Assembly: GCA_965261735.1 (NCBI GenBank)
Contig: OZ253470.1
Span: 768,001-832,000 of the forward strand
Length of the DNA stretch: 64,000 nucleotides
From: Alphaproteobacteria bacterium
Lineage (GTDB): Bacteria > Pseudomonadota > Alphaproteobacteria > SHVV01
Direction: 5' to 3'
Each line of letters starts with the position of its first letter. Position 1 is the stretch's first letter. The notes under the pieces are model-generated. The model was not told where the DNA came from. It saw only the letters and a list, made by a program, of their open reading frames with translations, and did not search any database. Shown here piece by piece: positions 7,376 through 15,514 of this stretch. Position numbers and translations under genes: made by a program.

Positions 7376-8143
7376 ATGGCCGCCGAGCGAGAGAGCACGT
7401 TCACCCAATTCGGCCGCCGCCGCGTCAGGACGGCGGACAAGGGGGCCCTGGTCAGGGGCGTCTTCGACGGCGTCGCCGAACGCTACGACCTGATGAACGA
7501 CTTGATGTCGCTCGGCATCCATCGCCTCTGGAAGCGGGCGATGGTCGAGTGGCTGAACCCGCGGCCCGGGACACGCGTGGTCGACGTCGCCGGGGGCACG
7601 GGCGATATCGCGTTTCGTATCCTCGAGCGCACGGCCTCGGCCGGCGCGCCGGCGCGGATCAGCGTCGTCGACGCGAACGAGGCGATGCTGCGAATCGGGC
7701 GCGATCGCGCCCTCGACCGCGGGCTCGTGCGCGGCATCGACTGGCTGTGCGGGGACGCCGAATCTCTACCGCTCGCCGACGGCGCGGCCGACGCCCTCAC
7801 CATCGCCTTCGGCATCCGCAACGTGACCCGCCTGGAAGCGGCGCTCGGCGAGGCGCGGCGCGTTCTCAAGCCGGGCGGGCGCTTCCTGTGCCTGGAGTTC
7901 TCGCGCACCGTCCTGCCCGGCCTCGGCCGCCTCTACGATGCCTGGTCGTTCGCCGTCCTGCCGGTCATGGGCGCCGCGGTGACCGGGCGCGCCGATGCCT
8001 ACGAGTATCTCGTCGAGAGCATTCGCCGCTTTCCCGACCAGCCGAAATTTGCCGGCCTCATCGCCGAGGCCGGCCTCGGCAACGTCAAGTGGCGCAACCT
8101 GTCGGGCGGCATCGTGGCGCTCCACTCGGCCTGGCGCCTGTAG
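7376..8143 (+). CDS. ubiE: Ubiquinone/menaquinone C-methyltransferase
   Basis: VFDGVAERYDLMNDLMSLGIHRLWK, DVAGGTGDIAF, YLVESIRRFP. Confidence 0.97.
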   Translation: MAAERESTFTQFGRRRVRTADKGALVRGVFDGVAERYDLMNDLMSLGIHRLWKRAMVEWLNPRPGTRVVDVAGGTGDIAFRILERTASAGAPARISVVDANEAMLRIGRDRALDRGLVRGIDWLCGDAESLPLADGAADALTIAFGIRNVTRLEAALGEARRVLKPGGRFLCLEFSRTVLPGLGRLYDAWSFAVLPVMGAAVTGRADAYEYLVESIRRFPDQPKFAGLIAEAGLGNVKWRNLSGGIVALHSAWRL

Positions 8144-8153
8144 GGCGCACGAG

Positions 8154-9695
8154 GTGCTGCGCAGCGCGCGTCATCTGTGGCGGCTCGCCGGTATCGCGCG
8201 CACGCTTGCACGCCACGATGCGTTCGCCGCGGTCGAGGGGCTCGACGTCGCGCCTCTGCTCGTCGGCATCGGCCGCGTCTTCGCCCGGCGCGCCGCCGGA
8301 GGGCGGCCCGGGCAGCGTCTCGTCGCCGCACTGCAGGAGCTCGGCCCTAGCTTCATCAAGTTCGGCCAAGCGCTGTCGACGCGCGCCGACTTGGTGGGCA
8401 CCGGCATGGCGGCCGACCTCGGCGAGCTGCGCGACCGCCTGCCGCCGTTCGCGACGGCAGAAGCCCGCGCCACCCTCGCGGCCGAGCTCGGCAAACCGGT
8501 GGAAGCCGCGTTCTCCGACTTCAGCGACATCCCGATCGCGGCGGCCTCGATCGCCCAGGTCCACCACGCAACGACGGGCGATGGCCGCGAAGTCGCGGTC
8601 AAGGTACTGAGGCCGGGGATCGAGGCGGCCTTTCAGCGCGACCTCGACCTGTTCCATTGGCTCGCCGAACTCGTCGAACGCACGCGGCCGGGCGCGCGGC
8701 GTCTACGCCCGGTCGCCGTCGTCGAGACCTTTCGGGCCGCGGTGGCGCTAGAGATGGACCTGCGGCTCGAGGCGGCGGCGGCCTCGGAGCTGGCGGAGAA
8801 CTTTGCCGGCGATGCGACCTTCCGCGTGCCCAAGGTGGACTGGGAGCGCACCGCGCGGCGGGTGCTCACGCTCGAGCGCATGGACGGCATCGCCATCGAC
8901 GAGCGCGAGCGGCTGATCGCTGCCGGGCGCGACCTCGATCGGGTGGTCCAGAATCTGTTTCGCGCCTTTCTCAACCAGGCCTTCCGCGACGGCTTCTTTC
9001 ACGCCGACCTGCACCCGGGTAACCTTTTCGTCGATGCCGAAGATGCGATCCTCGCCGTCGATTTCGGCATCATGGGCCGGCTCGATGGCGCCACCAGGCG
9101 CTACGTCGCCGAGCTGCTGCTCGCCTTCCTCACCGGCGACTACAAGCGCGCCGCCGAGGTCCACTTCGAGGCCGGCTATGTGCCCCCATCGCAGTCGCCC
9201 GAGCTGTTCGCGCAGGCCTGTCGCTCGATCGGCGAGCCGATCTTCGGCCGTGACGCCCACGAGATCTCGATAGGCCGGCTGCTGGCCCAGCTCTTCCGCA
9301 TTACCGAGACCTTCGCCATGGAGACGCAGCCCCAGCTCCTGCTGCTGCAAAAGACCCTGGTCGTCGTCGAGGGCGTGATCCGCGGCCTCGTGCCGGACGC
9401 CAACATGTGGCGCATCGCCGAGCCGCAGCTCGCCGCCCTCGTCCAGGACAGCCTCGGCCCCGAGGCGCGGCTGCGCGAGGGCCTCGAGGAGGCGGGCGGC
9501 ATCGCTCGGCGCTTTCCGCGCCTCATCGAGAAGGCCGAGCTCGCCGCCACCATGCTCGCCGGCGAGGGCCTGCGCCTGCATCCCGACAGCGCCCGCGCCA
9601 TCGCCGCCGAGCAGGACCGGCGCCGCCGTCCGACCCGTGTCCTCCTGTGGATCGCCGCCGGACTGCTGGTGGCTCTGCTGGCGACGCAGATTTAG
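8154..9695 (+). CDS. ubiB: Ubiquinone biosynthesis kinase-like protein UbiB
   Basis: LGPSFIKFGQALSTRAD, AAASIAQVH, VAVKVLRPG, GFFHADLHPGN; GTG start at 8154. Confidence 0.96.
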   Translation: MLRSARHLWRLAGIARTLARHDAFAAVEGLDVAPLLVGIGRVFARRAAGGRPGQRLVAALQELGPSFIKFGQALSTRADLVGTGMAADLGELRDRLPPFATAEARATLAAELGKPVEAAFSDFSDIPIAAASIAQVHHATTGDGREVAVKVLRPGIEAAFQRDLDLFHWLAELVERTRPGARRLRPVAVVETFRAAVALEMDLRLEAAAASELAENFAGDATFRVPKVDWERTARRVLTLERMDGIAIDERERLIAAGRDLDRVVQNLFRAFLNQAFRDGFFHADLHPGNLFVDAEDAILAVDFGIMGRLDGATRRYVAELLLAFLTGDYKRAAEVHFEAGYVPPSQSPELFAQACRSIGEPIFGRDAHEISIGRLLAQLFRITETFAMETQPQLLLLQKTLVVVEGVIRGLVPDANMWRIAEPQLAALVQDSLGPEARLREGLEEAGGIARRFPRLIEKAELAATMLAGEGLRLHPDSARAIAAEQDRRRRPTRVLLWIAAGLLVALLATQI

Positions 9696-9781
9696 CTCAG
9701 AGCACGAACCGCGCGGCCTTCCTTTCGCCCCATTTACACGTCAGGGTTTAGAGTGGACTGGTCTGCAGGCGAGGAACCGGC

Positions 9782-10672
9782 ATGCGCAGGGTCATCGGTT
9801 GGGCATTCGCGGTCGCCCTGATCGGCGGCGGGGCGGTGCCCGGCAGCGGCCACGCTGGCGAAACCTACCCCATGTGGTGGGCGCCGGAGCTTGGGCTTGC
9901 GAGCCTCAATGAGATCGACGCCAAGCTCGCGGAGCCGTTCCCCGGGGGCAAGCGGGCGGTGTTCCACAAGTTAGGCCGCCACATGATCGGCACGGGCGAG
10001 ACCGCCTACGTCGGCGAGTGGGGGTCGCTCGATGCGCGGCCCATCGACAACTGCTCCGCTTATCTGAAATGGACCGACGAGGGGTACCGGCACGACAACA
10101 GCGACGAAGATTCCCACTGGGTATATCGAATGAAGGGCGGGTACTGTTTAGCCTTGCGCGCGCTGAAACGGGCGCGCCCCGCCAAGACGAGCCATGTGCA
10201 CGACTTCGGCTTTACGCGGCATGTGTTGGATTACTTCCCGGCGCTCATGGATGCCGCCGGCTGCAAATTCCTGAGGGCCGAGATCGTCGCCAACCGTGAG
10301 GGGGTGCCGTGGAGCCAATTCGTCCATCCCGCCTTTGGGCCACCGAAGTATTTTGCCAACCTGGTCGTTCCGGACCCCGAGCATTTCGTCCACGAAGCGT
10401 GGAGCTCGTCCGAGATGACGCAAAAGTACAATGAGTGGGCCTTTGCCATCATCGGTCGTGGCGATCTCGACGGGGACGGCCTGAACGATCTGCTGGTAAG
10501 GCGGGATTTCCTCGGATTCTTTGGGGACAAACCCAGGGGTCTGCCGACAACGGTCCTGTTCCTGCTAACGCGCGATCGCGAGGGCGCCGTGCTCCGGGTG
10601 ATCGACGCGCACGGGTATCGCGGGGACAACAGTAAGTCGTGCCTCAATGCAAAAATCCTGAGCCACTATTAG
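9782..10672 (+). CDS. Uncharacterised secreted protein A (4 Cys, DxDGDG loop); putative muramidase partner
   Basis: 296 aa; RBS GAGGAA; signal peptide ending SGHA|GE; GDLDGDGLNDLL motif; close paralogue at 10913; function unknown. Confidence 0.85.
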   Translation: MRRVIGWAFAVALIGGGAVPGSGHAGETYPMWWAPELGLASLNEIDAKLAEPFPGGKRAVFHKLGRHMIGTGETAYVGEWGSLDARPIDNCSAYLKWTDEGYRHDNSDEDSHWVYRMKGGYCLALRALKRARPAKTSHVHDFGFTRHVLDYFPALMDAAGCKFLRAEIVANREGVPWSQFVHPAFGPPKYFANLVVPDPEHFVHEAWSSSEMTQKYNEWAFAIIGRGDLDGDGLNDLLVRRDFLGFFGDKPRGLPTTVLFLLTRDREGAVLRVIDAHGYRGDNSKSCLNAKILSHY

Positions 10673-10842
10673 CGACCGCGGCTGTGGAGGGTCTTCAGGG
10701 GTTTCTTGCAGGTCGGGTGGACGAAAAACGGCTCCTGCTTCAGCGTCTTCTCGAACATCTCCCGCACCGCCCGGTTGCGCTCCTCGCTCGGTTGTAGGCG
10801 GTGCGATTGCGCGGCCGCCACCTTCCAGTCACGGTGCTGCAC
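10669..10842 (-). pseudogene. Orphan C-terminal 57-codon fragment of the GH24 muramidase
   Basis: VQHRDWKVAAAQSHRLQPSEERNRAVREMFEKTLKQEPFFVHPTCKKPLKTLHSRGR* aligns to the end of the muramidase gene (13348-13246 plus 11868-11798). Confidence 0.9.
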
Positions 10843-10912
10843 GGTAGTCCTTTCTTTCGCCCCAATCGCACGTCATGGTAGATATCCTGGTCCAAACAGG
10901 CGGGGAACCTTG

Positions 10913-11801
10913 GTGAGTAAAGCAGCCGGATGGGCAGCGGCTCTAGGTTTGTTTCTCGGCGGCGGGGCGGCGCTCGGTGGCGCCAGCGGCGGTGAAACCT
11001 ACCCAGTGTGGTGGGCGCCCGAGCTTGGGCTTGAAAACCTCGACGAGATCGACGCGGCGCTCGCCCGCCCGTTTCCCGAGGGCAAGCGCGCGGTGTTCCA
11101 CAAGTTCGGCCGGCACATGATCGGCGAGGGCGACACCGCCTATCCGGGCGAGTGGGGCTCGCTCGATGCGCAGCCCATCGACAACTGCCTCGCCTACCTG
11201 AAATGGACCGACGAGGGGTACCAGCCCGAAAACGAGGACGAGGATTCTTATTGGGTCTATGAAACCAGAGCCGGGTACTGCCTAGCCTTGCGTGCGCTCA
11301 AGCGGGCGCGCCCCGCCACAACGAGCTATCTGCGCGACTTCGGCTTCACGCACGAATCGTTGGATTACCTTCCGGCGCTGCTAAACGCCGCCGGCTGCAA
11401 GCATCTACCACCCGAACTCCTGGCCAATCGGAACGGGGTGCCGTGGAGCAAATTCGTTCATCCCGCCTTCGGGCCACGGAAGCACTTCGCCAATCTGGTC
11501 GTTCGAGACCTGGAGCACTTCGTGTACGAAGCCTGGAGCTCGTCTGAAATGACGGAAAAACGAGGATGCTTTTTCCATAATCGGGCGCGGCGATCTCGAT
11601 GGGAACGGCCTGGACGATCTCTTAGTGAGGCGGGATTTTCTTGGGTTTTCTTATGGCAAACTCAGGGGGCCGCCTGAAACGGTGCTGTTCCTCCTCTCGC
11701 GCGACCGAGAGGGCGCCGTGCTTCGCGTCATCGACGCGCATGGCTATCGCGGCGGCGGCGGCAGGTCGTGCCTCAACGCCGAAATCCTGAGCTACTATTA
11801 G
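10913..11801 (+). pseudogene. Uncharacterised secreted protein B (paralogue of A), frameshifted
   Basis: ETYPVWWAPELG... about three-quarters identical to A by manual count; 5-nt deletion relative to A at ~11560; the shifted frame continues GDLDGNGLDDLL...SCLNAEILSYY* to TAG at 11799-11801. Confidence 0.88.
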
Positions 11802-11946
11802 CGACCGCGGCCGTGGAGCGTCTTCAGGCCTTTCTTGCACGTGGGGTGGACGAAGAAGGGTTCCTGCTTTAGCAGGCTGCTGAAAAAGTCCTCGCCTTTG
11901 CAGTTGTGACATGATTCTGTGATTCCTTCGAGTGATGGAGGATGGC

Positions 11947-13068
11947 ATGCGGGGTCGAGATCAAAGCAGTGGCAATTTATTCAGCTACGTAGACTTGGAA
12001 GAGCGTGTTCCGGATGATCATCCGCTGCGTCTGATCCGTGAGATCGTGAACGACGTATTGGGGTCTCTATCTTCGGAGTTCGAGACGCTTTATTCCCACA
12101 TGGGTTGCCCATCGATCCCGCCGGAGAGGCTTCTTCGAGCGTTACTGTTGCAAGCGTTTTATTCGATCCGCTCGGAGCGTCAGCTGATGGAGCAGCTAAA
12201 CTTCAACATGCTGTTTTGCTGGTTTGTGGGGCTTGGGCTGGACGATGGCGTGTGGGACGCCAGCGCGTTCTGCCACAACCGGGACCGTCTTCTGGAGGCG
12301 GAGGTTTCGGGGCAGCTGCTTGCGGGGGTTATCCAGCACCACAAGGTAGGGGGACTATTGAGCCGGGATCATTTTTCGGTAGACGGAACATTGATCGAGG
12401 CCTGGGCGTCGATGAAGAGCTTTCGTCCCAAAGGTGAGGACGATGGCGACGGGGGATCGGGGCGCAACGCCGCGCGGGATTTTCATGGCGAGAAACGCTC
12501 GAACGCGACCCATGCAAGCACCACTGATCCGGACGCCCGGCTTTATCGCAAGGGTAATGGCCGGGAAAGCAAGCTGTGTTACATGGGCCATGCGCTGACG
12601 GAGAACCGCCATGGTCTGGCAGTCGGCGGCGGCGTGACCATTGCGTCGGGCACGGCGGAACGCGAAGCCGCCCTTTATCTGATCGACAGGCATCGCCCGG
12701 TGGAGAGTAGAGGCGGGCGGCGTCGGATCACGGTGGGCGGGGACAAGGGTTTTGACGTCGCGGATTTTGTCGAGGAACTGCGGCACCGCAAGGTGACCCC
12801 CCATATCGCCGTCCAGGACCACGTCACCAAGACCGGCAAGCGGCGCAAGACCAAGATAGACGGGCGCACGACGCGCCATCCCGGTTACGGCGTCAGCCAA
12901 CGTTGCCGCAAGCGCATCGAGGAGGTCTTCGGCTGGGTCAAGACGAGCGCGGGATTGAGCAAGACCAAATTCCGGGGCCGCCACCGGGTCGACGCTTCGT
13001 TCACCCTGGCCTTGGCCGCCTACAACCTCGTCCGACTACCCAGACTGCTGGCGGAGGCGCCAACATGA
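11947..13068 (+). CDS. IS5-family transposase
   Basis: LFSYVDLEERVPDDHPLR, FSVDGTLIEAWAS, STTDPDARL, GGDKGFD, RKRIEEVFGWVK. Confidence 0.93.
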   Translation: MRGRDQSSGNLFSYVDLEERVPDDHPLRLIREIVNDVLGSLSSEFETLYSHMGCPSIPPERLLRALLLQAFYSIRSERQLMEQLNFNMLFCWFVGLGLDDGVWDASAFCHNRDRLLEAEVSGQLLAGVIQHHKVGGLLSRDHFSVDGTLIEAWASMKSFRPKGEDDGDGGSGRNAARDFHGEKRSNATHASTTDPDARLYRKGNGRESKLCYMGHALTENRHGLAVGGGVTIASGTAEREAALYLIDRHRPVESRGGRRRITVGGDKGFDVADFVEELRHRKVTPHIAVQDHVTKTGKRRKTKIDGRTTRHPGYGVSQRCRKRIEEVFGWVKTSAGLSKTKFRGRHRVDASFTLALAAYNLVRLPRLLAEAPT

Positions 13069-13226
13069 CGGGCGATGCCGGCACGCCGCTGACCGCAAAG
13101 TGGCAGATCATCGAACTGGACGAAGCCCAGGGCATCGGATCGGTCGAGATTGAAGACGGTTTCACCCTAAGACACGAAATCTCATTTCATTTCGGCGATG
13201 AATCCGAGTTCAAGGCCCGGCAATGA
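13065..13226 (+). CDS. Small passenger ORF inside IS5 (53 aa, possibly internally deleted)
   Basis: ATGA overlap with the transposase stop, RBS GGAGG; MTGDAGTPLTAKWQIIELD...ISFHFGDESEFKARQ* ends just before the right TIR. Confidence 0.5.
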   Translation: MTGDAGTPLTAKWQIIELDEAQGIGSVEIEDGFTLRHEISFHFGDESEFKARQ

Positions 13227-13989
13227 TGACTTTTTCAGCAGCCTGTTAGTGCCTTCTCGAACATCTCTTGCACCGCCCGGTTGCGCTCCTCGTTCGGCTG
13301 TAGGCGGTGCGATTCCGCCGCCGCCACCTTCCAGTTGCGCCACTGCACAGCGGGGGTAAATTTCTCGAACACTTTGATAAGGTTCGGTACGCCTAAGTTG
13401 TATCCCATGTCATAGAGGCCGAGCTGGGCCGAACGGGGATAGGTCGCCATCTTGGGGAAACGCTCGGAGTCCCGCAACTCGTTGCGGACGTTTTCGATAT
13501 CCCTCATCGCTAGTGTCCAAATCTCGGCGTCCGACAGGTCGAGGCGCGTCAAATCCTTGAACTTGGTGTGGTCGCTTCCCTTGAGGTCCTGACGTTGGAA
13601 CACGGCACGCCAGGCCTGCCGCTTCTCGTATGCGTCCGCGTACACCAGCGGCTTCATGTCGCCCATCGGGATGCGCCGATGGAAGGGCAGCGCCACGACA
13701 TCGGATTCGTCGGCAATCTGGGTGACCCATGCCGACGGTGACCTTGCCCTCGGTATCGAGGTACATGTGCGACACCCACCCCTCATGTTTGTGCAGGTGC
13801 TGGTACACCGTGTCCTCCTCGACCGTCCAGGTAAGGGGCCGATTCATCTGCTTGCTGACCCGCTACAGTTTCGCATCGCGATAAACGCAGCCCGTGCCGC
13901 GCTGGACCAGCACGCCCTTCTTGGTCCCGATGGCGTTCCAGTCGTAAGCCCAGCCCGCTTCCTCTTTCATTTGACGTCCCGCCTTTCTT

Positions 13990-14094
13990 TCAGCGATCGC
14001 GACACGGGCGGGGAAATTCGCCCCTGCCCGGGGTCGCAGTGAGGTCGAAGATTTGTTGCTCGAGTTTTCTCAGCTCGGTATCGAACATGAGCAT
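13990..14094 (-). CDS. Putative 34-aa small ORF upstream of the muramidase
   Basis: RBS AGAGGA then MLMFDTELRKLEQQIFDLTATPGRGEFPRPCRDR*; lies between a good promoter and the muramidase RBS. Confidence 0.45.
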   Translation of the reverse strand: MLMFDTELRKLEQQIFDLTATPGRGEFPRPCRDR

Positions 14095-14125
14095 TGCGCT
14101 TCCTCTACGATGTGTATCGTTATGT

Positions 14126-14155
14126 ATCGTAACAGCTCTCTTCGTATCATGTCAA
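14126..14155 (-). promoter_or_regulatory. Sigma70-like promoter for sORF/muramidase
   Basis: TTGACA (14155-14150), 18-nt spacer, TACGAT (14131-14126); overlapped by GATAC direct repeats. Confidence 0.6.
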
Positions 14156-14278
14156 AGCATTGGGACGTTCATGCAGCGATACTTCGCGTTCGCGGGATTT
14201 GGCCGACGGCTTGCGCTGCGGCCGCGCGCCAGCTATGTTATTTACAGCCACGCAACGTAGTTTCCGGGTAAATACGCG

Positions 14279-15514
14279 ATGCTGGACGGCAAACGGATCC
14301 TGCTGATCGTTTCGGGCGGGATCGCGGCCTACAAGGGGCTCGACCTCATCCGCCGGCTGCGCGAGCGCGGTGCCGCGGTGCGCTGCGTGCTCACCCGCGC
14401 AGGCGCCGAGTTCGTCACGCCGCTGTCGCTCGCGGCGCTCAGCGGCGACAAGGTCTACGGCGATCTGTTCTCGCTCACGGACGAGAGCGAGATGGGCCAC
14501 ATCCGGCTATCGCGCGAGGCGGACCTCGTCGTCGTCGCGCCGGCCACCGCGAATATCATCGCCAAGATGGCCGCCGGCATCGCCGACGATCTCGCGTCCA
14601 CCACCCTGCTGGCTGCCGACAAGCGCGTGTTGATCGCGCCCGCGATGAACGTGCGCATGTGGGAGCACCCGGCGACGCGGCGCAACCTCGCGAAGCTCGC
14701 GGCCGACGGCGTGCTCGCTTGCGGTCCAGCCACGGGCGCGCTCGCCGACGGCGAGTTCGGCGCCGGGCGCCTGGCCGAGATCGACGACATCATCGACGCC
14801 ATCGAGGCGGCGCTCGGCGCGCAGCCCGCGGCACGCGCGCTCAGCGGGCGCCGGGCGCTCGTCACCTCGGGCCCGACGCTCGAGGCGATCGACCCCGTGC
14901 GCTTCATCTCCAACCGTTCCTCGGGCAAGCAGGGCCACGCCATCGCCGCCGCGCTCGCCCGCCACGGCGCCGAGACGACGCTTGTAGCCGGGCCGACCAG
15001 CGAGCCCGAGCCCGAGGGCGTCGGCGTGAGGGCGGTCGAATCGGCGGCGCAGATGCTCGAGGCCTGCCTGGAGGCGCTGCCCGTCGATGTAGCGGTGTGC
15101 GCCGCCGCGGTCGCCGACTGGCGCGTCGATGCCCGTAACGCCAAGCTCAAGAAGACCGGCAACGGCGCACCCAAGCTCGCGCTCGTCGAGAACCCCGACA
15201 TCCTCGCCACCTTGAGTCGGCGCACGAACGACCGCCCGCGCCTCATGGTCGGCTTTGCCGCCGAGACCGAGGACCTGGTCGAGAACGCGCGCGCCAAGCG
15301 GCTGCGCAAGGGCTGCGATTGGATTCTGGCCAACGACGTCTCGCACGACAGCTCGGTCTTCGGCAGCGACGACAACGAGGTGCACTTCATCGCCCAGAGT
15401 GCGAGCGAGGCTTGGGCGAGGATGAGCAAGCCCGCGCTCGCCGAGAAGCTGGCCCTGCGGATCGGTGAGTTCTTCGCCGGCGCGCCGGGGCCCGGCCCGG
15501 CCGAGCCCGGTTAG
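14279..15514 (+). CDS. coaBC: Phosphopantothenoylcysteine decarboxylase/ligase
   Basis: GGIAAYK, GHIRLSR, APAMNVRMW, TSGPTLEAIDPVRFISNRSSGKQG, GFAAET. Confidence 0.98.
   Translation: MLDGKRILLIVSGGIAAYKGLDLIRRLRERGAAVRCVLTRAGAEFVTPLSLAALSGDKVYGDLFSLTDESEMGHIRLSREADLVVVAPATANIIAKMAAGIADDLASTTLLAADKRVLIAPAMNVRMWEHPATRRNLAKLAADGVLACGPATGALADGEFGAGRLAEIDDIIDAIEAALGAQPAARALSGRRALVTSGPTLEAIDPVRFISNRSSGKQGHAIAAALARHGAETTLVAGPTSEPEPEGVGVRAVESAAQMLEACLEALPVDVAVCAAAVADWRVDARNAKLKKTGNGAPKLALVENPDILATLSRRTNDRPRLMVGFAAETEDLVENARAKRLRKGCDWILANDVSHDSSVFGSDDNEVHFIAQSASEAWARMSKPALAEKLALRIGEFFAGAPGPGPAEPG

Follow-up and report, generated by a model that had tools for sequence, protein, structure and literature searches.

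A decaying, duplicated muramidase cassette in an alphaproteobacterial genome and its candidate periplasmic inhibitor of a new fold

Introduction

What does a lysozyme-type enzyme have to do with an unnamed exported protein whose gene meets its own tail to tail? This question is raised by a 4.58-kb island at positions 9696-14278 of a 64,000-nucleotide stretch of an alphaproteobacterial genome (GenBank assembly GCA_965261735.1, contig OZ253470.1, positions 768,001 to 832,000), which we call the window and whose numbering we use throughout. The island carries a gene for a secreted protein, here termed A, a second copy of it, termed B, and, on the opposite strand, a gene for a muramidase of glycoside hydrolase family 24 (GH24), here termed mur. 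A preliminary description, made from the sequence alone, had proposed a muramidase effector with a periplasmic inhibitor. Here, we followed the two genes through this and other genomes and modeled their products. Our data support A and mur as a functional pair of the enzyme-plus-periplasmic-inhibitor kind, and the island would be a decaying, tandemly duplicated copy of this two-gene cassette.

Results

Linkage of A and mur

The genome of the window contains 24 A-type and 11 mur-type matches. The two genes converge at at least seven of its loci (the window locus, 976k, 1353k, 1411k, 2916k, 3315k, and 4566k), and both are whole at 976k, 1411k, and 3315k. Nine A loci were found in other genomes, which are metagenome-assembled genomes (MAGs) labeled Proteobacteria, Alphaproteobacteria, Rhodospirillales, and Acidobacteria. 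Eight of these nine have a mur gene downstream of A on the opposite strand, and the ninth contig stops 10 bp past the A match. The co-occurrence of A homologues with GH24 enzymes, which the preliminary description had put forward as a check, was thus borne out. In a sample of 400 genomes of the class (G numbers are our labels for genomes, and L numbers are those for loci), full-length mur was present in G006, G086, G099, G176, and G252, and strong A matches were present in G006, G099, G176, and G222. Adjacent convergent pairs in this sample stand at G176:C9, G006:C4, G099:C122, and G099:C45; two of the mur genes were located at contig ends. From stop codon to stop codon, the distance between A and mur ranged from a 4-bp overlap to 150 bp (11 pairs). 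These counts establish the linkage of the two genes and their orientation.

A is patchy, being present in two of eight genomes of the order and in none of 400 other genomes sampled across the phylum. This distribution is like that of accessory genes, and we count it in favor of a toxin-immunity role. Arrays of A copies stand beside one mur at the 3315k locus (three copies) and in G006 (five pieces), and the 1695-1701k locus of the window's genome holds an A array with a mur fragment. At the 1698k locus of the same genome, as well as at L096 and L099, A is an orphan or is accompanied only by a 3' remnant of mur. In L099, from G222, a tandem A lies between ubiA and ubiD with no mur nearby. The mur 3' remnant of L096 adjoins the A gene. 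Two different MAGs have an A gene in one and the same housekeeping neighborhood, near genes for an H+-pyrophosphatase and bamE (L096:8664-9832 and L032:4702-6198).

Other secreted proteins neighbor these genes at some loci. At L028:6831-8672, L030:1010-2875, and L027:8016-9821, a gene encodes a protein of about 600 aa that has a signal peptide and helical repeats but belongs to no Pfam family; this gene either separates mur from A or converges on a second A. At L098:4527-5537 in G252, we found a 336-aa secreted protein with two internal repeats containing Cys pairs, encoded on the same strand as mur. It may be an alternative partner of mur. The G252 mur gene itself follows a tail-completion gene.

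The muramidase family

The window mur reads HEGWVSHMYLDTEGKVTVGMGH and HEGWVSHMYLDTEGKVTVG, which gives the E-x8-D-x5-T spacing of GH24 enzymes, as had been described. A read-through translation with X matched the lysozyme domain of T4 gp5 over both lobes (E 1e-4), and gp5 lysozyme domains were the best PDB sequence matches of the window mur. Against Pfam Phage_lysozyme (PF00959), the window mur scored 18.3 bits, under the 22.3 cut-off; its relatives in L024 (31.5 bits), L030 (26.1 bits), and L097 (22.8 bits) were above it. A family profile built from 15 sequences reached T4 lysozyme at E 4.3e-10. Among these 15 sequences, the catalytic residues E94 and D103 are invariant and T109 is nearly so; in a 326-aa subtype, the Glu and the Asp stand four residues farther apart. 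For an intact paralogue, the model (predicted local distance difference test [pLDDT], 84.2) matched T4 lysozyme in Foldseek with probability 1.0, a template modeling (TM) score of 0.70 on the length of T4 lysozyme, and E 1.8e-4. The intact relatives settle the membership of mur in the GH24, or T4-type lysozyme, family, and muramidase activity is predicted from it. The closest named proteins to the mur core were 195-aa GH24 proteins carrying PF00959 together with PF16754 (Pesticin).

No signal peptide was found in mur, in agreement with the preliminary description. The N-terminal extension, given there as about 60 aa, measures approximately 85-105 aa in intact relatives and has the motif [IV]LVE[RP]GTGC. 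It was modeled as a small beta domain and had no Pfam match; its ESM Atlas scores (≤0.81) were uninformative. No TonB box was recognized in the extension on inspection by eye. At the other end, the protein continues for some 25-30 residues beyond the lysozyme domain with the conserved sequence EPFF[VL]xPxC. This tail had been described as basic, with the remark that basic C termini can be signals for a type IV secretion system (T4SS); it is instead a motif conserved across the family and not a generic basic signal. Nine of the 15 sequences have a Cys in the extension together with a Cys in the tail, four have neither, and two have the extension Cys alone. This co-occurrence suggests a disulfide linking the extension to the tail, and hence that mur would act outside the cytoplasm. 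A search for longer fused forms of mur, including fusions to tail proteins, yielded none, a result of little weight. The additions that it carries at both ends would make mur a new GH24 subfamily.

The A family

Gene A (9782-10672, plus strand) is an intact open reading frame (ORF) of 296 aa that encodes a predicted Sec signal peptide, four Cys, and an FG-GAP-like GRGDLDGDG loop. Members of the family are mostly 250-320 aa long and begin with a signal peptide or a lipobox-like N terminus. The mature part, about 235 residues in A, starts with YP[VI]WW[SA]P, and two Cys are invariant; the loop is conserved. Apart from this one FG-GAP-like calcium-loop motif, A had no family in Pfam, NCBIfam, PHROGs, or PADLOC. 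Even the loop scored only 16 bits in the window A, under the 22.1 cut-off, and 23 bits in the 3315k A. We considered A as an FG-GAP or integrin-type beta-propeller and rejected this, since there is a single loop and the predicted fold, a domain of mixed alpha/beta type, contains just one sheet.

A word-indexed search with A returned 12 proteins, most of them from the window's genome or from a strain nearly identical to it. Searched against 1.84 billion representatives, an 11-sequence profile gave 118 matches at E≤1e-30 and 977 at E≤1e-10; the 7260 matches at E≤1e-3 form an inflated count, because it includes giant proteins with FG-GAP/VCBS repeats whose match is confined to the loop. None of the 118 representative clusters has a Pfam or NCBIfam name in the searches made. 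In the ESM Atlas, 29 of the 30 clusters nearest A lacked a common Pfam family, and the four rows shown read "hypothetical protein." Some family members are tandem fusions with two or three A domains in one polypeptide (P0048, 781 aa; L026:5914-8451; L092:2678-4336; L099:10109-11719).

The model of A was confident (pLDDT, 90.9; predicted TM score, 0.85) and resembled no solved structure. The best Foldseek match in PDB had E 0.11, VIA-align over 48,161 chains gave a best Z of 4.0 with zero chains at ≥5, and the best match in BFVD had E 0.043. The A profile matched PDB entries through the loop only, with E≥0.026. By its model, A is thus a member of an unnamed family with a new fold among solved structures, and its export signal is predicted. 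The family had indeed been called unrecognized in the preliminary description. If A inhibits the neighboring muramidase, it would be a new family and a new fold of lysozyme inhibitor or immunity protein.

Predicted complex of A and mur

We modeled the complex with the intact 3315k pair, using family alignments for both chains. The interface score ipSAE (interaction prediction score from aligned errors) was 0.86, 0.86, and 0.83 in three runs, versus 0.00 for the best of three controls. Of 157 solved complexes, 116 reach this mark, as do 2 of 215 mismatched pairs; with custom alignments, these counts are only rough. Contact agreement between runs was at least 85%, and partner pLDDT was at least 85. 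It is unlikely that the score reflects a known complex already familiar to the predictor, because A has no solved relative.

On the mur side, the interface comprises residues 92-95 and 97 (including the catalytic E94), 103-105 (including D103), 112-113, 218-238, and 252-264. On the A side, it comprises residues 87-100, 140-149, and 209-221. The model supports binding in which A sits over the catalytic cleft of mur at Glu94 and Asp103. Segment 252-264 falls inside the 57-codon 3' end of mur, exactly the part that is duplicated together with A in the window. Binding between the muramidase and A, another check proposed at the outset, is therefore predicted for this paralogous pair.

Layout of the window island

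The left flank is ubiB, an ABC1 kinase-like gene (7995-9695, plus strand; Pfam ABC1, E 5.6e-79), and the right flank is coaBC (14279-15514, plus strand; Pfam DFP plus Flavoprotein). In 10 of 17 relatives' loci, including seven of seven same-family genomes, ubiB and coaBC adjoin directly. Positions 9696-14278 are therefore an insert, as the preliminary description had stated of these common neighbors. The G+C content falls to 0.54-0.62 in the insert versus approximately 0.70 in the flanks.

Behind ubiB, a conserved element at 9717-9747 (plus strand) lies 5' of A and is repeated 5' of B at 10849-10879 (direct repeat D7, 84% identical). The duplicated unit starts at this element, which may carry the promoter region. 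Gene A follows, and its stop codon overlaps by 4 bp the stop codon of an orphan mur 3' fragment (10669-10842, minus strand). This fragment represents the last 57 codons of mur, with an ORF translation ending in EPFFVHPTCKKPLKTLHSRGR. It is 87% identical to 13248-13348 (repeat D4), and in a tblastn search it matched residues 202-239 of the mur read-through.

Gene B (10913-11801, plus strand), the second copy of A, is a pseudogene. The preliminary description was right about two diverged copies, as A and B are 73-76% identical, but a 5-nt deletion near 11559 puts B out of frame. This loss shows in the repeat register, which changes from 1134 to 1129, and the intact counterpart of B (P0006) has 297 aa. 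The stop codon of B again overlaps a mur stop codon by 4 bp: the translated 3' end of mur, its last 24 codons (LKQEPFFVHPTCKKGLKTLHGRGR) plus the stop, occupies 11798-11872 on the minus strand and is parted from the gene body by an insertion sequence (IS). A and B, each with a 3' piece of mur, form a tandem duplication of about 1132 bp with 80-87% identity. The 57-codon fragment between A and B thus identifies the duplicated unit as A plus the mur 3' end.

The insertion sequence (11873-13245, plus strand) is 1373 bp long and IS5-like. Its transposase ORF (11932-13068) matches Pfam DUF772 (PF05598) plus DDE_Tnp_1 (PF01609), and the element has 24-nt inverted ends (inverted repeat I1) and a TTAG target duplication at 11869-11872 and 13246-13249. 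A DDE transposase with DUF772, terminal inverted repeats, and a 4-bp target duplication place it in the IS5 family. Fourteen full-length copies at ≥99.4% identity, plus fragments, are present genome-wide, and the element is apparently active. Several copies lie within or beside other A/mur loci (1406-1411k).

The body of mur (13246-14094, minus strand), as delimited by sequence and reading frames, starts at an ATG at 14094. About 30 nt 5' of this start lies a sigma-70-like promoter match, TTGACA-18-TACGAT (14126-14155, minus strand). One such site was found versus 1.0 expected from shuffles, so that its position is suggestive and no more; overall, the scan of promoters and terminators gave counts at chance level. 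An IS transposase was the only mobile-element gene in the island, and no holin or phage gene was recognized there, as described before.

Decay of the window locus and strain variation

With at least four lesions, the window mur is a pseudogene, and A is the sole intact gene among A, B, and mur. The first codons of mur (MLMFDTELRKLEQQ) are out of frame with the rest of the N-terminal extension. An in-frame TAG follows at 13863-13865, a +1 frameshift lies near 13720 after GMGH, and the 1373-bp IS separates the conserved tail from the gene body.

Some of this damage is absent from other strains. Contigs of the public runs X5 and X19 have an IS-free joint from 11868 to 13246, and the X5 contig has a B allele with five extra letters behind 11559 that is otherwise identical. 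Since these contigs lack the two lesions, the IS insertion and the B deletion are recent and strain specific. The region of the TAG is identical in X5. A contig of X5 with one letter left out at 13720 was considered as an intact mur allele and rejected, as it carries three substitutions matching the 4566k paralogue. In runs X2 and X5, contigs join 13331 to 10832, that is, the mur body to the orphan fragment near A, 2500 bases back. This joint has 47 letters on its shorter side, and reads were placed at 90% likeness. It could be a haplotype with a single A/mur unit or a recombinant that swaps the C-terminal end of the enzyme and drops B and the IS. In the metatranscriptome runs X19 and X20, contigs overlap short stretches of A, B, and mur at a depth of 2-4, which is no proof of transcription because DNA may occur in such libraries.

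Taken alone, the window locus is a case of ordinary decay, an orphan immunity-type gene next to a dead enzyme gene. With A kept, mur dead, and B broken, the remnant resembles an orphan immunity gene.

Delivery and gene transfer agent context

The preliminary description had suggested delivery by a type VI secretion system (T6SS) or a bactericidal T4SS and proposed a search for such genes elsewhere in the genome. The genome, a single contig that is 98% complete, had no match to TssC (PF05943) or VirB4 (PF03135), and no Hcp, VgrG, PAAR, or VirB-type families were among the annotated neighbors of A/mur loci. Because neither TssC nor VirB4 was matched, delivery by these systems is not supported. 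Thus, of the proposed effector with periplasmic inhibitor, the functional pair is upheld by linkage and by the predicted complex, but this mode of delivery is not.

A different context emerged in other genomes. In L024, L027, L098, and L105, mur adjoins tail-terminator-like (PF11367) and/or tail-tube (PF06199) genes. These loci are head-tail clusters like those of RcGTA, a gene transfer agent (GTA); L105 is an IMG/VR contig. A fifth locus, L028/L091, is a rearranged cluster of the RcGTA-like kind. In all five, mur is on the strand of the structural genes; A is antisense in four, and none was found in L098. Within these clusters, mur sits among head-tail genes and outside any lysis module. No holin families were found next to mur in the annotated loci, although holins are diverse and hard to recognize. 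L024 and L027, from the same MAG bin, have tail-tube proteins that are 99% identical and g8 proteins that are 90% identical, versus 60% for mur and 62% for A. The cassette has therefore been swapped or has diversified within conserved flanks.

In the window's genome, PF06199 had no match, and a single weak HK97-capsid match lies at 2.23 Mb, far from any pair. At two loci of this genome, a C-terminal remnant of a tape-measure gene is directly upstream of mur. These are L018:9433-10575 (1413.4-1414.6k) and L019:7504-8265, where the 326-aa mur subtype is preceded by a frameshifted gene with matches to phrog_30701 and to tail tape-measure PHROGs in its C-terminal part. No other phage-like remnant adjoins a pair in this genome. 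Phage context had been named in advance as a finding that would refute the effector proposal. Such a context is present in part, in the five GTA-like clusters, but neither mur nor A had a tblastn match in 50,697 sequenced phage genomes, and only one IMG/VR contig carries both genes. In the literature searched, a limited collection, we found no report of a muramidase-inhibitor pair in GTA clusters; the words "inserted," "insertion," "lysozyme," and "interrupted" are absent from PMC5721377.

Discussion

We lean toward the view, held with some reserve, that the cassette belongs to the toxin-immunity type and pairs a muramidase with a periplasmic inhibitor. Its enzyme would be a GH24 muramidase that lacks a leader and has a small beta domain at its N terminus and a conserved tail at its C terminus, and A would be a Sec-exported or lipoprotein-type protein of new fold encoded convergently to it. 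From the complex model of the paralogue, we infer that A binds mur in the periplasm, covers the catalytic cleft, and so shields the cell's own peptidoglycan, which would make it an immunity protein. The cassette would then behave like pesticin/Pim or colicin M/Cmi, as a polymorphic toxin-immunity module used on other cells without T6SS or T4SS delivery. Release of mur by cell lysis would be the simplest idea; where the cassette is embedded in GTA-like clusters, release along with GTA production would be possible. Multiple copies, A arrays, tandem-fused A proteins, orphan A genes beside 3' remnants of the toxin gene, variability far above that of the flanks, patchiness, and frequent decay are typical of toxin-immunity systems.

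Several observations weigh against this view. The co-divergence of mur and A is weak (Spearman 0.38 in a mirror-tree comparison of nine pairs, reached by 43 of 2000 permutations). By sequence comparison, one A subgroup co-varies with the unrelated secreted protein of about 600 aa and not with mur: the A of L028 shares 78% identity with the second A of L027, and the accompanying ~600-aa proteins share 83%. At the G252 locus, another secreted protein follows mur, and an A gene was not found. No exit route from the producer and no entry route into a target was found, with no signal peptide, lysis gene, T6SS, or T4SS to point to one, and the 85-105-aa extension is short for a receptor-binding plus translocation module. 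The late-operon orientation of mur in the GTA-like clusters fits a particle-linked role equally well. Finally, because the window mur is broken, the complex was modeled on a paralogous pair whose proteins are 42% (mur) and about 30% (A) identical to those of the window.

The GTA-like clusters invite a rather unlikely alternative, modeled on T4 gp5 and Spackle, in which a GTA or phage particle contains mur, as one of its components or as cargo, and opens the recipient's wall, while the opposite-strand A blocks mur in the periplasm of carrier cells and thereby excludes entry. Free-standing islands, that of the window included, would be remnants whose exclusion gene alone still serves a purpose. 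The position of mur in RcGTA-like or rearranged clusters, with an antisense A in four of five, speaks for it, as do the tape-measure remnants upstream of two mur genes and the gp5 lysozyme domains as best PDB matches; the predicted capping of the catalytic cleft fits equally well. Against this, the window's genome has three intact pairs yet no PF06199 match and one weak, distant capsid match, and neither gene had a match in the phage genomes searched, with only one IMG/VR contig holding both. The failure to find fusions of mur with tail proteins is weak evidence in the same direction, and shutting out particles made by kin would run contrary to the assumed role of GTAs. In another explanation, which we regard as unlikely, mur is an endogenous autolysin (housekeeping or stress induced) or the lysis enzyme for GTA release, and A is a periplasmic regulator that protects only in cis. 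The missing export signal and the late-operon orientation of mur in GTA-like clusters agree with this, and X-Tfi immunity proteins act mainly against cis-intoxication (PMC10933484). Genes that are multicopy, patchy, hypervariable, arrayed, and often pseudogenized or hit by an IS are, however, unexpected for housekeeping functions, and no holin was seen beside mur, even if holins are hard to recognize.

Injection of mur by a T6SS or a bactericidal T4SS, with A as the periplasmic immunity protein, shares the pairing logic of Tse3/Tsi3 and X-Tfe/X-Tfi, and it has the duplication of immunity-type genes and the predicted binding in its favor. We nevertheless consider it very improbable, given the lack of TssC and VirB4 matches in the genome and of Hcp, VgrG, PAAR, and VirB-type families among annotated neighbors. 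A C-terminal secretion domain such as XVIPCD has about 120 aa. The mur tail of 25-30 aa is far shorter, and the search for longer fused forms, which found none, adds weak evidence. That A and mur are functionally unlinked accessory genes hitchhiking together is scarcely credible, since their convergent adjacency recurs in distant genomes and at paralogous loci with 30-60% protein identity and the complex model passes its controls.

Returning to the cassette as a muramidase with its inhibitor, its meaning may reach further. It has the traits of a polymorphic toxin-immunity module without a recognizable secretion system, and in some lineages it is embedded in GTA-like clusters, where it outpaces the divergence of the structural genes. 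The cassette would thereby link interbacterial antagonism with gene transfer agents. A more speculative thought, which we think improbable, is that it serves as a hypervariable self/non-self determinant within GTA-like elements: mur would be produced in the lysing subpopulation, alongside the particles or as a passenger on them, and the periplasmic A would decide the fate of a neighbor. A neighbor with the cognate A would be spared or excluded, and one with no A would be lysed or penetrated. If so, GTAs would have a kin-discrimination or entry-exclusion layer based on an inhibitor of new fold, and free-standing copies such as that of the window would be an immunity arsenal from past exchanges.

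Comparison with known systems

The pairs Tse3/Tsi3 and X-Tfe(XAC2609)/X-Tfi(XAC2610) resemble A and mur in that each consists of a peptidoglycan hydrolase and a periplasmic or lipoprotein inhibitor. They belong to systems of which the window's genome has no marker, T6SS and T4SS, and their genes form codirectional operons, in contrast to the convergent A and mur. Tse3 is not known to be a GH24 enzyme, and X-Tfe is a GH19 enzyme, whereas mur belongs to GH24. In such pairs, immunity can serve against cis-intoxication (PMC10933484).

T4 gp5 and Spackle offer a GH24 lysozyme that is inhibited by a periplasmic protein of the same element. Unlike gp5, mur is not fused to a spike protein, and neither gene of the cassette was found in sequenced phages. 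The A model, in turn, matched the fold of none of the solved chains, a set that would take in the Spackle complexes.

Pesticin of Yersinia pestis comes close to mur. It is a bacteriocin with the fold of T4 lysozyme and muramidase activity, and its periplasmic neutralizer, the small exported immunity protein Pim, is encoded next door (PMC3390615). Shared with this system are a producer without a dedicated export system and the Pesticin family itself, as the nearest named relatives of the mur core carry PF16754 with PF00959. An adjacent periplasmic immunity gene whose product binds the activity domain, as in the pesticin type, is predicted here. Pesticin differs in that the mur extension is only ~85-105 aa, with no TonB box or receptor-binding domain recognized, and mur has the conserved tail EPFF[VL]xPxC. 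A has about 235 mature residues and no solved fold match. The A/mur cassette is also chromosomal and multicopy and sometimes lies inside GTA-like clusters.

The last comparison is with colicin M and Cmi. The catalytic domain of colicin M is a lipid II phosphatase and not a muramidase, and the immunity folds differ. As is proposed for A and mur, a toxin that acts on the cell wall is paired with an immunity protein that is periplasmic or membrane anchored, and the colicin M family recruits different, unrelated immunity proteins (PMC5821083). The immunity genes of colicin M-type toxins are mostly found downstream of the toxin gene and in the opposite direction (PMC5821083). The convergent layout of A and mur, which the preliminary description had called unusual, is therefore the norm for such systems.

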